A stretch of 32,000 bases of DNA from Candidatus Saccharimonadota bacterium (GCA_965231145.1 OZ246420.1:540001-572000); one strand, 5' to 3'. Counted from the stretch's first letter, positions 8,667 to 13,854 are shown. Made by a program: numbers and translations. Notes: a model not told the origin generated them from the letters alone.

Positions 8667-11600
8667 TTATTCTACTTCTCCACATATTCCTTTTTTCAAT
8701 AGTTCTTTTACTAATACTCTTCCTTGTTCAGCAGATATTATATCTTTTCTATTTATCTCATTAATTTTCTTGATTGCTTTATAGAGAACTTGCATCTTCT
8801 GCCAAAGTTGCTTATTTGTGTAATTATATATTTCTGCTTTTAGACCATTTTTACCTGGTTCTCCTCTACCAATAGGATGCGCTTCACTAATAGCATCACG
8901 AAGAATTTGCTCATCATAATATGAGAGTAAAAGTCCTTGTGCCTTTACTATTTCCATACCCTTATCCCCTCTTTTCACATCAGGCAATTGTGCATTCTCC
9001 TTTACTGCCTGCTTATCAAGTCACTGTAACTGTAATTTCACAATATCCTGGATCTGATAAAGTAATGTCTTTCCATGGGTTGCTATCTTACGAGTTTTTG
9101 TCAGCAGCTCAATAAACTGACCTATACTTCCTCCTGTTTCTCATATAAGCACTCCAACATCTCCATAGACATCTGTATATTCATCGCTTAGAGAATATTT
9201 TTCAAATTTTGTAAATATTTTCATAAAGGATTCTATTTTTGCTTGTGCCTGTTGAGGTGTCATATTTTTATCTACATTTTTGAGAAACCTAGCAATCTTA
9301 TTTCCAAGGAATTGTACTACTAAATCAGCCGGCATCACAGTTCCGCACACATAGTTCTCGAGAAGCGCATTAGCTTCTTTTTGGGTAAACATACCATCTT
9401 TCATTAGTTCTTGTCTTTTGGCAACTAACTGTTTATTGGTAAAGTTAGTTTCTATCGTTCCATTTTCATTTACATACAGACCTGGAGGCAATATGCCGTC
9501 TCTTCCTATTTCTCTCTCAAAATTCATATCGTGCACTTTTTGAATACGCTCCATTTCTGCTGAACTCTTCATTTTTCTTCAAATAATGGTTTCTATTTTT
9601 TCCTGAGAAAAATTATTTACTGAGCGAATTTCTACATGTGCAACAGGGAGTGTACTTTTCATCTCTGTAAATAATGTTTTACTATCTACGTACTTCTTTG
9701 GGAACACAGGGTATCTTTCAAATGAATAATAATATTGCTGACCATCTTTTGTGAAGAACTTATTTGTGGATGAACCATCGAGAGCCACTCCTTCAATATC
9801 TATAAATTGAAATCCCTTTTCTGCGCTATAAATAAAATTACTTCTCTTCGTCAGATCTGTTTGTATTCATCTTTCTGATAGCGTTCTCATAGTCTTTTCA
9901 AATGCTTGAAAGTGTGCTGCTGGGATAGCATCTATTTGTTCTGGTGTTAGTTTATCGCATGACACGCCTTCTGCAATATTCATAACAACAACCTGCTCCC
10001 CACCGGCTAAATTAAATACTTCTTTAGGAACAAATACATGTGGTAAGTCTTTAGTAGCTTCCTGCAAACGAGCTACTTGCTCAATAGGCATAGCTCTTTT
10101 TGCCTTTACTACTTTTACAAATGCATCACTAAATTTATAGAGTCATATGTTTCTACCACCATCTGCCGCGATCTTTATGAATGATTTATAGTGATCTATA
10201 AAATACTTTTTATTAAATAACTGATTCTCTGTTTCTATCGGTGAGCGATGAATAGCACTTTCTACTCAATTATTTTTAAATTTATATCATCCATCTGCTA
10301 GTTTCTCTGCTTTTCATTCTCTTACTAGCTTGTCCCATAAATGCTGAGCTGGTCTTTCTTTTATCTCGGTAAGTCTTCCTTCAGCAATCAATTGCTGTAT
10401 TTGCTCTTCTGTATATGTCAATTTTTTCATATCATTTTCAGTCAATTCTTTGCCATCAAGAAAAACTCTGCTATAGCTATCTAGAAAATGAGTATCTGAA
10501 TATAAATTTCCTACTCACATATCATTACCTGCTTTATTCAGTTCTTTGTAGAGATTTTCTGCTATTCACTGTCTAGTATAATCATTTTTTATTCCGATTC
10601 TCTGGATCTGGAATTTCTCATTATATAATTTAAATACCAACGTTCCTACCTCATTACCATTTTTTATAATACTTGTAATAATAATCTGTCCCTCTTTTGT
10701 TTGCGGCGCATCGTTAAATTGCAGCTTCAATGTAGGCAGATTACTATTGAGATTATCTATAAATAACTGAGGATTTTCCTGCGCTTTTTGTAAAGCTTCT
10801 TTTACTTCTCAAGGAGTATTCTCTTTTTTCATACCATGAGAATCTATGTTTTGTTCTTCTCTCGTATATGATGACGAAATATCATTATTATTGACTCAAC
10901 TAAGATTATTCTTCTTTCAAAGAGATGATACCACCCCCTCATCGATAACATTTCAGCTTTCTTTATCCGTAATGAGATATTTCACCTGCTGTTTTTCTCC
11001 TGAATCCTCTATAGACAATATCTTAATTGTATAATTGCCCTGACTACTCTTTTCAATTCACTTTGCTATAGTTTTACTCTCTATTTTCTTACTCAAAGCA
11101 TTGAGCTGTCCCGTTCCCATATGAGCAATTCTTAAACCGACAACCATGGCAAGGGTTTGCATGAGATCTTCCGGAGCTAATTTCACGTTTTCTCCAAAAG
11201 CAATGTTTACTGCGACATCTGCTCACTGCATACCAACAAATTCTGCTGGCAATGTGATAATGTTTGCAAGCAGCTTATCCTGTAGTGCAGGCGTATTCAA
11301 ATTTTCTAATTTCTTTCACGCTATTTTCTGAGTCATGCTATTGGTAATACCACCGAAATACTTCATAACCCCCATGAAGACTACACTTCTCAGATAGTCT
11401 TCTGACGAAGACTTTTCATTACCCGCTTCGCTATAATGTCCAAATGGATTAAGCTTTTGCAGAAGTTGATCTGACTCTCCTGCTCTTGCTGCATTAAGCG
11501 TCGTATGTGTTGCGTGGAAAGTAGCTCATTCTACGGTAAGATCTGCTATGGTCAATGCACGGCTTGTTTTCCACGATGCTACCAAGCCTTTCGAGGCTAC

Positions 11601-13562
11601 TTGGCTATATTTACCGACCTTTACTACAACGTTAGCGGCATTGATAAGTTCGGCACCTTTCTGTACTGCAGCGAGTGCCGATTTAGCAGCGATGTTTGCT
11701 ATTCCTCCGGATACTGCAATAAGAGCGATGTTAATAACCAGTTCTTTGGAAACATTTACGGCAACGTTCGTCTTTTTATCAGACCAATAATCGCCAATAC
11801 CTTTAATATCAGCCATAAGGCGAATCGCTTGTTCATCGCTTGTTAAAGGCTGCTTAGTTTCTTTTAAGCTATTGACCATTGTTGGATATGCTTGGAGCAA
11901 CATACTTCCAATTGCCTTTGGCAAAGTTTCCGCAAGATAGATGCTTTGATAATTTCTCACTTGGCTTTCTGCAATTTGTTCAATGGAAATAGTTGTTTGA
12001 TTGCCATTAACTCCTTCCATTGAAATACTCTTTCATGCAAGAAGATCTGTATAAAGAACATTCTGATCCTCAAAATATTTGATGTATGCTTTTGCTGTTG
12101 GTGAGCCCTCATCAATTCACTTCTGCTTCAAAAGTTTTTTTGCCTCTACCATATTTTTTTCTATGTTCTTCTGTTCTCTCGTATATCAAGAGATCAATGT
12201 CTCTTTTGTTTTTTGCTTTTCTGTAGCAGCAGCAAGTTGCATTTTTTCAAATATTTTTATGAGGGTTTTGGTCATCTCTTTACGAACTTTTACGACTTCT
12301 TGCGAGTTACCAACAGGGATGTTCATCTCTCCTAAATATGTCTCAAGCGCTTGTGATCTTTGGGTCTTCGGTATATTTTCTGCACTGAGAGGATTATCAA
12401 AAGTTTTACTTCCTCCATGTCCATCACCCGATGGTGTATATGTATAATTTTTGAGAAACTCTCTTGAATCAACGGGTTGAATCTCGGGAAATAATGCTAA
12501 GAGTTTTTGCATATCACCTGAAAAATCTCATTTGGCATCTAGTGAAATCATTGACTCTATTTTTTGCATAGTGCCGTTAAATTCCTTCGCCCCAACGCCA
12601 CCAAATACGTCTTCTCTTACTCTCAGGTGCAAAATATTATCAGTCAGCACTTCTGAGATTCACTCTCATGACTCATAAGTGAAACCTGCAAACCATGAAC
12701 TCAGCGTAGCATCATGCTTATCCAGGTTTCTTATAGACGTGACTATAGCCATGGTTGTTTCCTTAGCCTTTACTGGCGATAGCCATTGGCTATTATCTGT
12801 CATCAAAGAAACAATTGAATCCCTCGTTCCATTTTTATCAAATAGTGCTCACGAAAATATACCTCCAATGGCCACATAGAGCTCTGAAGAGCTCGTCTTT
12901 TCAATCCCACCTGGTTGATTACATTTGCTAATAAATTCTTGCAATGTTTTTGATGCTGCTTCTGTATCTTCTCCATGCGACTCTTGATAATGAAGGTACG
13001 CTGATGCTAGCTTTATAATCGTCTCGTATTGAGTACGTTTTTGTTCTGGAGGCAAGAGCATATTTGTCGTCTCCATACGCTTATTCAATGCGCCTGTCAC
13101 TGCTGTTGAAGCTTTTGTTACACGAGGAGTTTCACGTTTCACTATAGCAGGATATGCATTATATCTAGGGTTAATAATACTAATGATGTTCTGGACTCAA
13201 AGAGAAAGCGTACCATCAGTACCTTCCAGAAGTGGTAGTATCATAGTAACATTAGCCAAGTGTATGTACCCCAGTTTATATGATAACTTGAAAAGCTTAA
13301 TATCTTGTTCACTCAGCATAGTATTATTCTGTATTTTTTTCATGAGCTCTTCTGCTGTGTCGAGCAATGTCTGATCACATGTATTTTTCAATTGATCAGA
13401 TCGTTCTCTCTTCTGCAGTTCCTGCTTTACGAGCTCGGTATGTGCTATTTTTCACGTTTTTTTATCGAAAAATCATTCATCTAGAGCTTTTTTAAGTTCC
13501 TGAAAATCTATATTTTTATTGGTATCTCTATCTATCTGTTCAAGTAGCTTTGTTTCAGGCAT
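8667..13562 (-). CDS. Giant multidomain orphan protein (1,631 codons) with GNAT-like and protein-kinase-like motif sets
   Basis: All eight minus-strand ORF fragments between 8667 and 13391 have upper coordinates congruent to 2 mod 3. My hand translation of every gap, including 10092-11525, found only TGA and no TAA/TAG. The ORF starts at ATG 13560-13562 and stops at TAA 8667-8669. Motifs are detailed in the findings. Confidence 0.75.
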
Positions 13563-13563
13563 A

Positions 13564-13854
13564 TTATTTATTATTCCAGTCTGCTAAAATATCTTCTGCT
13601 GCTTGTTTATCTTCAACTTGTTGACTCTTTTCTTTTGCTTGAATCATCCCCAAAGTATGAAGAGATTCCTCAAATTCTTTTTTGATCAGTTGAGACTTTG
13701 TCGTTCTTATGACTTCTGCAAAGATATGGCAAAGTTGCTCAATAAGCTTCTTATCTGCCTTTGCATTTTCAACCATGGCAATATAGCCTTCCGCAAGGTC
13801 CCGGTATGGCGATAGTTTCTGTAATATAGAGATAATTGCTTCTTGTGTACTCAT
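13564..13854 (-). CDS. Hypothetical small protein (96 aa) abutting the giant ORF
   Basis: Intact ORF. Its TAA (13564-13566) is separated by one nucleotide from the giant ORF's ATG (13560-13562), an arrangement compatible with translational coupling. Confidence 0.55.
   Translation of the reverse strand: MSTQEAIISILQKLSPYRDLAEGYIAMVENAKADKKLIEQLCHIFAEVIRTTKSQLIKKEFEESLHTLGMIQAKEKSQQVEDKQAAEDILADWNNK

Follow-up and report, generated by a model that had tools for sequence, protein, structure and literature searches.

A TGA-recoded giant gene and its small upstream partner form a conserved operon encoding a modular protein with a kinase-like module

We describe two adjoining minus-strand genes in a 32,000-nucleotide stretch of DNA (GCA_965231145.1, OZ246420.1:540001-572000; deposited as Candidatus Saccharimonadota bacterium), which is referred to below, at its full length, as the window, with positions counted from its first letter. 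One gene encodes a giant protein of 1,631 residues and the other, directly upstream, a protein of 96 residues. Together they make up a genuine operon in a Candidate Phyla Radiation (CPR) bacterium of the Gracilibacteria or Absconditabacteria type that uses genetic code 25, and the giant belongs, as judged by sequence comparison, to a small, previously unannotated family of modular giants confined to TGA-recoded genomes.

The giant open reading frame (ORF) runs from an ATG at 13562-13560 to a TAA at 8669-8667 on the minus strand, a span of 4,896 nt and 1,631 sense codons that includes 28 in-frame TGA and six TGG codons and no TAA or TAG ahead of the terminal TAA. A first-pass annotation, made from the sequence before the present analysis, had proposed that eight separate fragments belong to one gene; all eight code-11 fragments (8667-8987, 9141-9572, 9579-9788, 9867-10091, 11526-12020, 12186-12512, 12849-13142 and 13197-13391) do lie in this single frame and make up one code-25 gene. 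Its hand count of about 26 TGA codons was right in that only TGA interrupts the frame and slightly low in number, the program count being 28. Over the same stretch each of the other five frames holds 25-99 TAA or TAG codons, and the probability of a 1,631-codon frame free of both, given the base composition, is P ~1e-42. When genes were called independently on a 47-kb contig of the same sequence from Logan (ERR4405440), a single 1,631-aa product again resulted; at NCBI the sequence lies on a contig of 1.107 Mb.

Codon alignments indicate that TGA is read as glycine (code 25), both in the giant gene and in the other genes of the window. TGA codons at giant residues 1140 and 1232 align with a glycine that is invariant in 9/9 standard-code homologues of the kinase-like module described below, and in the central region of the giant four of eight TGA codons align with glycine in one relative. 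Elsewhere in the window, MurA 'PXFPTD' (X = TGA) matches the conserved motif PGFPTD, and Alr 'GYYEXLPR' matches the conserved GYADGYPR. TGA accounts for 24% of the glycine codons of the giant, a value included in the range of its neighbours, and reading TGA as sense turns the genes of the window into full-length housekeeping ones (XseA, pyruvate kinase, HD hydrolase, FKBP, NusA, RF1, MurA, Alr, an HtrA-like protease, FtsX and L1). The use of code 25 in turn points to the Gracilibacteria or Absconditabacteria lineage of the CPR. The window also carries a release-factor gene of the RF1 type (20707-21777, plus strand) that contains three TGA codons in frame, and no RF2 gene was seen in its 32 kb; RF1 without RF2 is as expected for a TGA-recoded genome, and a 32-kb window proves nothing on this point.

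Under code 11 the region splits into at least eight fragments, and several genes, or a pseudogene, might thus seem to be one ORF through ignored TGA codons. This alternative is effectively refuted already and retains next to no probability: apart from the improbability of such a TAA- and TAG-free frame and the TGA codons at invariant glycine positions of standard-code homologues, the order of blocks is kept in homologous giants of 1,437-2,077 aa, and the AlphaFold2 (AF2) models of a kinase-module homologue (P0011; relatives are designated here by P and L numbers) and of the C-terminal module are confident. The features of the pair, all on the minus strand, are as follows.

13564..13854, minus strand: small partner gene, 96 aa, no TGA (translation)
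8667..13562, minus strand: giant gene, 1,631 codons plus TAA, 28 TGA read as Gly (code-25 translation; single product on the Logan contig)
12813..13562, minus strand: N-terminal region, residues 1-250, hydrophilic (phmmer, inspection)
10923..12815, minus strand: family-defining conserved core, residues ~250-880 (BLASTP against relatives, alignment)
11664..11768, minus strand: strongly hydrophobic Ala/Gly-rich segment, residues ~598-633 (Kyte-Doolittle, single sequence and family mean)
10443..10760, minus strand: GNAT-like module, residues ~935-1040 (sub-threshold profile matches)
9633..10205, minus strand: minimal protein-kinase-like module, residues ~1120-1310 (homologues, AF2 model of P0011, Foldseek)
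9336..9560, minus strand: first 'AH...GxCG' module copy, residues ~1335-1409, ending ...LLENYVCG (phmmer, motif alignment by eye)
8670..9020, minus strand: C-terminal 'AH...GKNG..IYNYT..QL..KM...KELLKKGICG' module, residues 1515-1631 (relatives, AF2)

The first-pass annotation had called the giant an orphan. It proved instead to have family members in other TGA-recoded genomes, and its kinase-like module has relatives at 40-53% identity. An exhaustive HMMER search with the TGA-free fragment covering residues 511-678 against 1.84 billion representatives returned only ten proteins. Setting aside the fragment of the window itself leaves nine, of which eight are either giants (1,437-2,077 aa) or short pieces of genes for such giants. 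The giants are rich in tryptophan because TGA was mistranslated as Trp. Over the last ~110 aa of the window protein, identity is 40-49% both to P0001 (1,930 aa, TGA mistranslated as Trp) and to code-11 fragments from several metagenomes. Translated with code 25, the relatives share a core corresponding to window residues ~250-850 (BLASTP E 1e-22 to 1e-30, and 2e-67 for L006); the L006 giant, incomplete at 1,800 aa or more, aligns with residues 425-879 at 34% identity with the latter E value. Giants from seven other loci or proteins have a homologous core, whose invariant motifs are I.G.G...SD.T.N, KE, EG..FH, Y..S.AF.GV.K and GLR..H. Code-11 gene calling shreds the family into fragments, which is probably why annotation has missed it. 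With the full-length giant as query, a 5.8-billion-protein database gave at least one partial match, and it was the shorter queries that found the relatives. Of the genomes concerned, only that of P0001 is among the GTDB representative genomes; metagenome scans with automatic patterns and with IYNYT..QL..KM gave none, and the latter pattern was also not found in IMG/VR. Three observations on individual members are recorded here. The L001/L003 record (GCA_964435215.1, CAYSXV010000018.1) holds a giant with 62 in-frame TGA codons deposited with TGA as Trp and is labelled 'uncultured Candidatus Peribacteria bacterium'; its annotation code looks questionable and its taxonomic label possibly so too. 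MORN-like repeats were noticed by eye in P0020 and P0023, and an HExxH motif in P0001; no profile confirmed either.

Within the core, residues ~598-633 are strongly hydrophobic and Ala/Gly-rich, with a family-mean hydropathy of 2.0 (Kyte-Doolittle), and would be long enough for a transmembrane helix or hairpin; the hydrophobic stretch pointed out in the first-pass annotation, ELVINIALIAVSGGIANIAAKSALAAV, falls here (residues 607-633, nt 11664-11744). Weaker, moderately hydrophobic segments follow at residues 724-740, 764-780 and 797-816. The N-terminal region (residues 1-250) is weakly conserved (phmmer E=4.5e-5 with the L020 giant; domain E=0.017 with L001 residues 11-92) and has no NCBIfam or Pfam match. 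As noted before, it has no obvious signal peptide: by inspection the N-terminus is hydrophilic and lacks any signal-peptide-like segment. Residues 1-899 have no match in Pfam, NCBIfam or PADLOC, and the core and C-terminal module have none in Pfam, NCBIfam, PHROGs, PADLOC, PDB sequences, GenBank phages, PLSDB plasmids or IMG/VR. Nor did anything in Pfam, NCBIfam, PHROGs or PADLOC rise above threshold when the query was the giant, the small protein, any of five further family members or the viral giants described below.

The kinase-like module, residues ~1120-1310, has seven stand-alone homologues (274-317 aa) with which it shares 40-51% identity, and GGRNxGLY, FVKLV, H(x19)D, TDLTKRSN and FQFID are the invariant motifs of this family. 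In the window protein, the motifs are GGRNIGLY at residues 1135-1142 (Gly loop) and FVKVVK at 1148-1153 (beta3 Lys, K1150), followed by H1217, TDLTKRSN at 1235-1242 (catalytic loop, D1236/N1242) and FQFIDIE at 1251-1257 (metal-binding D1255). The invariant His is followed by an Asp 19 residues on (HWEAFETTIRTLSERGIPTD), in a domain of about 190 aa. The homologue P0011 (45-50% identical) was modelled with AF2 from an alignment of homologues and two TGA-free window fragments; its core has a predicted local distance difference test (pLDDT) score of 85-97, and the kinase motifs sit on the expected secondary-structure elements of the model. Foldseek with this model gave NleH2 as top match (4lrk_A, E=1.9e-4, probability 1.0, 150 aligned columns). 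Hundreds of further PDB matches are protein kinases too, and BFVD gave viral Ser/Thr kinases. The kinase-like module of the first-pass annotation is therefore supported at the level of fold and motif, by its motifs, its 40-53% identical homologues, the P0011 model and the NleH2 match. The kinase family has no Pfam match, a PDB sequence search was negative both with the single sequence and with the family profile, and the module has no match in GenBank phages or PLSDB plasmids.

Copies of the kinase module at 48-53% identity lie inside standard-code ORFs of 1,344 and at least 2,106 aa on IMG/VR contigs, and more distant copies (24-29% identity) lie in L017 and L018, in ORFs of 1,964 and 1,691 aa. 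In one viral-contig giant the module is fused to a ParB-like region, and the L018 ORF directly follows a gene for a giant 'virion structural protein'. By eye, L017 (9062-14956) and L018 (9062-14137) contain linker units of the form 'NGGEINQYEDGGKLKQYFKLPTKRVAVDNTYNKNS' that recur, an HExxH motif and an 'AFQETKFG' motif resembling lytic transglycosylases, and they end in a long Gly-rich stretch; no profile supported any of these features. P0011 itself is encoded on a 93-kb contig with 26.6% GC (L011 1-19375, JGI 3300056850) amid large same-strand genes for proteins of at least 690, 1,628, 1,101 and at least 2,853 aa, the 1,628-aa one faintly matching AAA_30/viral-helicase; the region looks like a mobile element or jumbo-phage-like. 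The stand-alone homologue P0005, on a 5-kb contig, starts 3 nt after a 52-aa ORF and adjoins Zeta-toxin-like and nucleotidyltransferase genes, a conflict-system-like neighbourhood.

Upstream of the kinase-like module the giant probably contains a GNAT module, of a RimI/Naa50-like type. Pfam searches on residues ~960-1030 gave Acetyltransf_1 (E=0.007) and Acetyltransf_7 (E=0.014), and NCBIfam gave RimI (0.0011), ArsN2 (0.0064), AAC(6') (0.011) and spermidine acetylase (0.017) on the same stretch. The GNAT-like module of the first-pass annotation thus holds up in that six GNAT profiles converge on one stretch, and falls short in that all six stay below their curated cut-offs (RimI, 19.1 bits versus 86.4; Acetyltransf_1, 17.1 versus 20.7). 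A two-sequence profile built from the window module and that of the relative P0012 had GNATs as seven of its nine best matches in the PDB, at E values of 0.08-0.9. Both the GNAT models and the PDB matches align at a motif-A-like stretch, IQRIGIKNDYTRQGIAENLY, at residues ~986-1005; relative to the acetyl-CoA motif A (Q/R-x-x-G-x-G/A) the window reads T-R-Q-G-I-A, and so deviates at the first position. P0012 carries a GNAT-like module of ~27% identity at the equivalent position, which independently matches Acetyltransf_1 (E=0.015). The TGA codons at residues 999 and 1016 fall within the GNAT core.

The C-terminal part of the giant contains two copies of a further module with conserved 'AH' and 'GxCG' motifs (residues ~1335-1409 and 1515-1631). 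Some members of the family, the window protein included, carry between one and three copies of it; phmmer with giant residues 1305-1420 matched L009g (domain E=2.4e-5) and L001 at 1058-1088 and 1303-1332, and the C-terminal copy is 40-49% identical in L001, L004, L006 and L009. AF2 predicts the last copy as a five-helix bundle with a small hairpin (pLDDT 91; predicted template modelling score, pTM, 0.84), and Foldseek with this C-terminal helical domain found no match in the PDB (best E=0.8). The 'AH...GxCG' unit is accordingly, as modelled, a new and confidently folded helical module. The first-pass annotation had seen no recognisable family in the C-terminal region, and about 330 aa indeed match no known family by profile or Foldseek. 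The idea that 'AH...GxCG' marks a His/Cys autoprotease was set aside, the model being all-helical and without a protease-like match, and one relative having GFSG.

Comparison of individual members reveals how these modules are distributed. P0012, a fragment from a close relative, is 80% identical to giant residues 1300-1466. Upstream of 'E[VI]RSVNNFSQEKIETIIGRK', the boundary common to both, P0012 lacks the kinase and carries a GNAT-like module different from that of the giant. L006 differs from P0001 by an insert of ~340 aa flanked by duplicated modules, and the code-25 C-termini of L006 and L020 match HAD-family phosphatase (E=9e-5) and RamC_N (E=6.6e-6), respectively, each just under the cut-off. 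Across the members compared, then, the scaffold is kept while the enzymatic cargo is exchanged.

The small partner follows the scaffold. At the junction ('...AAT AAA TAA t ATG CCT...') a single nucleotide separates the 96-aa ORF (13854..13564) from the giant, as the first-pass annotation had stated, and no Shine-Dalgarno-like motif precedes the ATG of the giant, which would fit translational coupling. The 96-aa protein is charged, with an N-terminal L..L.PYRDLAEGY motif and an acidic C-terminus (AEDILADW); it has no match in Pfam, PHROGs, PADLOC or the PDB, and a small-protein profile was negative against PDB sequences. The 5' end of the giant is visible at seven loci (the window, L001, L019, L020, L021, L023 and L024), and in 7/7 a gene of 93-110 aa lies directly 5' of it on the same strand, with a gap of 1-22 nt; conservation of the pair in related genomes had been named beforehand as a test, and all seven loci keep it. 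The small proteins form two subgroups with BLAST E values of 5e-13 to 2e-28 within each, and HHalign connects the subgroups through a match that is collinear over the full length (P=1.7e-4, probability 49%). The flanking genes vary by locus and are all housekeeping genes (ribosomal proteins, U32 peptidase, PrsW protease and prepilin peptidase among them), and a pair conserved amid such differing flanks implies that both genes move jointly, as one unit of the chromosome. No kinase or GNAT is present in L001, L019-L024 or L006, so members of one small-protein family are found ahead of giants whose cargo is unrelated. Since the small protein tracks the scaffold while the cargo differs between loci, it does not appear to be a cargo-specific antidote; on this distribution, a scaffold chaperone or adaptor is more likely, and the antidote role that had been floated for it is disfavoured.

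The same distribution bears on a possible toxin-antitoxin (TA)-like pair, in which a self-poisoning kinase/acetyltransferase giant would be held in check by a translationally coupled 96-aa antidote. GNAT and kinase toxins exist among TA systems, a small upstream gene tightly coupled to a downstream enzyme is an arrangement found in type II TA, and the stand-alone kinase homologue P0005 adjoins a Zeta-toxin gene behind its 52-aa ORF. Type II TA, however, entails a partner that is specific for the toxic domain and co-varies with it, and here one small-protein family precedes giants with entirely different enzymatic modules; moreover, a 1,631-aa toxin with a conserved hydrophobic scaffold of ~600 aa is unlike known TA toxins, and PADLOC gave no match. 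We regard a TA pair as very improbable. At L023 alone, a further 96-aa gene (6547-6837) begins 1 nt past the end of a 2,006-aa family member and could be a cargo-specific immunity-type gene; the window has no counterpart of it.

The combination of domains in the giant was not recognised as a described family in the first-pass annotation, but it has a conceptual precedent in the polyvalent proteins of phages and conjugative elements (PMC5512222). These feature a monophyletic clade of the Ser/Thr/Tyr-kinase superfamily in which the C-terminal subdomain is missing, the active-site residues are intact and an insert separates the conserved His and Asp, with stand-alone versions as well (PMC5512222); they also feature RimI-like GNATs (Iyer, Burroughs, Anand, de Souza, Aravind 2017, J Bacteriol; PMC5512222). 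Like them, the giant joins unrelated protein-modifying enzymes, a kinase and a probable GNAT, in one very large polypeptide, and its kinase resembles the published description of that clade in its truncation, retained active-site residues, His-Asp insert and stand-alone versions. Unlike them, the window gene is chromosomal, in a CPR bacterium and among housekeeping neighbours, not in a phage or plasmid, and the giant has a hydrophobic core, 'AH...GxCG' modules and an obligatory small upstream partner. Polyvalent proteins are encoded by phages, prophages, plasmids or conjugative elements and enter the cell along with the invading DNA; the surroundings here, in the window and at the six other loci, are housekeeping genes; no DNA-acting domain (methylase, helicase, ParB or primase) was detected in the giant.

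Given this precedent, the giant might be a domesticated or resident polyvalent protein of a mobile element, for example in a cryptic prophage remnant, with an intracellular anti-defence or anti-phage role. The 48-53% identity of its kinase module to modules of viral-contig giants speaks for such an origin, as do the viral copy next to a virion structural gene, the copy fused to a ParB-like region and the joint presence of kinase and GNAT, which are signature polyvalent domains (PMC5512222). The GC content at third codon positions (GC3) of the pair, 0.287 for the giant and 0.302 for the partner, also lies below the 0.35-0.45 of most neighbouring genes, which could reflect a different history or a different expression level. 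Against these stand the window itself, with no phage, integrase or conjugation genes, no tRNA, no Rfam match and no meaningful flanking repeats; the different housekeeping neighbours of the other six loci; the core and partner, for which GenBank phages, PLSDB plasmids, IMG/VR and PADLOC gave no match; and a TGA usage in line with that of the host genes. We consider a mobile-element protein quite unlikely.

The closest structural parallels to the kinase module come from bacterial effectors: NleH and OspG are minimal kinases without subdomains VIII-XI (PMC12756638). The window module shares with NleH1, NleH2 and OspG a minimal fold of ~160-190 residues in which the Lys, the catalytic Asp/Asn and the metal-binding Asp are kept. 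It differs in having no detectable sequence homology to them (21% identity in the structural alignment), in its TDLTKRSN catalytic loop with a His ~19 residues upstream, and in the lack of a type III secretion system (T3SS) context; its targets, unlike those of NleH/OspG, are likely to be bacterial rather than eukaryotic.

A second parallel is found in polymorphic toxins, reportedly described by Zhang and colleagues in 2012 and in later work, including toxins of the LXG/type VII secretion system (T7SS) class with small helical partners and MARTX-type multi-effector toxins; PMC5512222 sets polymorphic toxins in contrast to polyvalent proteins. In common with these toxins, the window family has a conserved N-terminal and central scaffold, swappable C-terminal enzymatic modules with signs of cassette exchange between close relatives, small co-encoded helical proteins and hydrophobic segments suited to membrane translocation. 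In contrast to them, its small gene lies upstream with no immunity gene downstream (the next gene in the window is convergent), and it has several enzymatic modules, tandem and internal, rather than one terminal toxin. No known trafficking domain (LXG, PAAR, RHS, MAFB, TcdB-like and others) or known repeat was detected with Pfam or NCBIfam.

Taking these parallels together, we give an even chance to the reading that the giant is a membrane-active scaffold carrying swappable enzymes for use against another cell, with the 96-aa protein as scaffold chaperone, adaptor or export cofactor. Termination and reinitiation 1 nt apart would couple production of the 96-aa protein to that of the giant, whose conserved scaffold it would then bind in one of these roles. 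The hydrophobic core would anchor the giant in a membrane or insert into one, either the producer's own at a contact site or that of an attached host or prey bacterium, and the kinase and acetyltransferase would, by analogy with polyvalent proteins and effector kinases, modify proteins of the target cell. The cargo would be exchanged by recombination, as in polymorphic toxins. The effector role itself, with its secretion, delivery into another cell and toxicity, is likewise proposed by analogy, and in view of lifestyle: Absconditabacteria live as predators or epibionts and have many giant membrane proteins (PMC8080830; on the epibiotic or predatory lifestyle of such bacteria see also PMC11452946).

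Several observations weigh against this reading. No signal peptide, secretion or trafficking domain, or secretion-system gene linked to the pair was found, which makes delivery the weakest link of the proposal. With its invariant polar residues, the hydrophobic core could, instead of translocating, form a soluble or enzymatic helical domain. Kinase activity is read from the motifs and from a model whose subject is a homologue rather than the window protein, and the GNAT module, probable as it is, was assigned from sub-threshold matches. The link between the two small-protein subgroups, with its HHalign probability of 49%, is only moderately supported, and the family is small, with about eight clusters in 1.84 billion representatives.

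The lack of a secretion signal could also point to a protein that acts in cis, held in the producer's own membrane by the hydrophobic core, as a surface or adhesion protein or as a signalling scaffold that phosphorylates or acetylates proteins of the producer, with the small protein as assembly factor. The chromosomal locus and its housekeeping context are in keeping with this, as are the MORN-like repeats that some relatives, by eye, seem to carry. The giant proteins of Vampirococcus lugosii, of 1,392-4,163 aa, are inferred to be membrane-associated and to serve in host recognition and attachment (PMC8080830). The window protein comes from the same kind of organism and is in a comparable size range. 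However, the Vampirococcus giants carry adhesion or interaction domains (WD40, PKD, integrin, fibronectin; PMC8080830), whereas the window family has enzymatic modules, and no adhesion domain was recognised in it. Close relatives differ by exchange of these modules, a pattern characteristic of proteins of conflict or effector type rather than of regulators with a housekeeping role, and the kinase type is otherwise found in giant proteins on viral contigs. An envelope protein is in our estimate unlikely, while keeping a real share of the probability.

If the favoured reading of a membrane-active scaffold directed against another cell is right, the locus is a concrete candidate for how ultra-small CPR bacteria subdue or exploit their bacterial hosts, since it offers a conserved two-gene module with catalytic modules of the kind that phages use against bacteria. 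We know of no effector enzymes identified in CPR bacteria such as Gracilibacteria or Absconditabacteria, for which published studies suggest a role of pili and of giant surface proteins. Modular multi-enzyme conflict proteins are known as a kind; the hydrophobic scaffold, the helical domain and the obligatory partner are new. A bolder version, which we consider unlikely, is that a hitherto undescribed, CPR-specific delivery device is built from the core, the 'AH...GxCG' modules and the ~100-aa partner. Code-25 episymbionts or predators would use it to insert phage-derived takeover enzymes (kinase, acetyltransferase, phosphatase-like and other modules) straight into the bacterium to which they are attached, without a classical secretion system, the GxCG modules marking sites of module exchange or processing.

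Around the pair, promoter-like sites are rarer than in shuffled sequence and terminator-like sites are unconvincing. A gene for a 446-aa multi-pass membrane protein without a Pfam match (7322-8662, plus strand) converges with the giant, their stops lying 4 nt apart, which leaves no space for an intergenic terminator; it is preceded by a gene for a 376-aa membrane protein, also without a Pfam match (6179-7309). On the other side, a 739-aa ORF with five TGA codons and no Pfam match (14094-16313, plus strand) diverges from the small gene over a 239-nt AT-rich spacer, an arrangement seen likewise on the Logan contig. A 425-aa ORF with six TGA codons (29043-30320, plus strand) has no Pfam match either. 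Finally, on the far side of these two membrane-protein genes and about 2.6 kb away from the giant, a minus-strand gene (4683-6059) encodes a 458-aa protein of unusual make-up, in which a P-loop ATPase region like that of PilT/T2SSE is joined to KH domains at the C-terminus and a basic tail.

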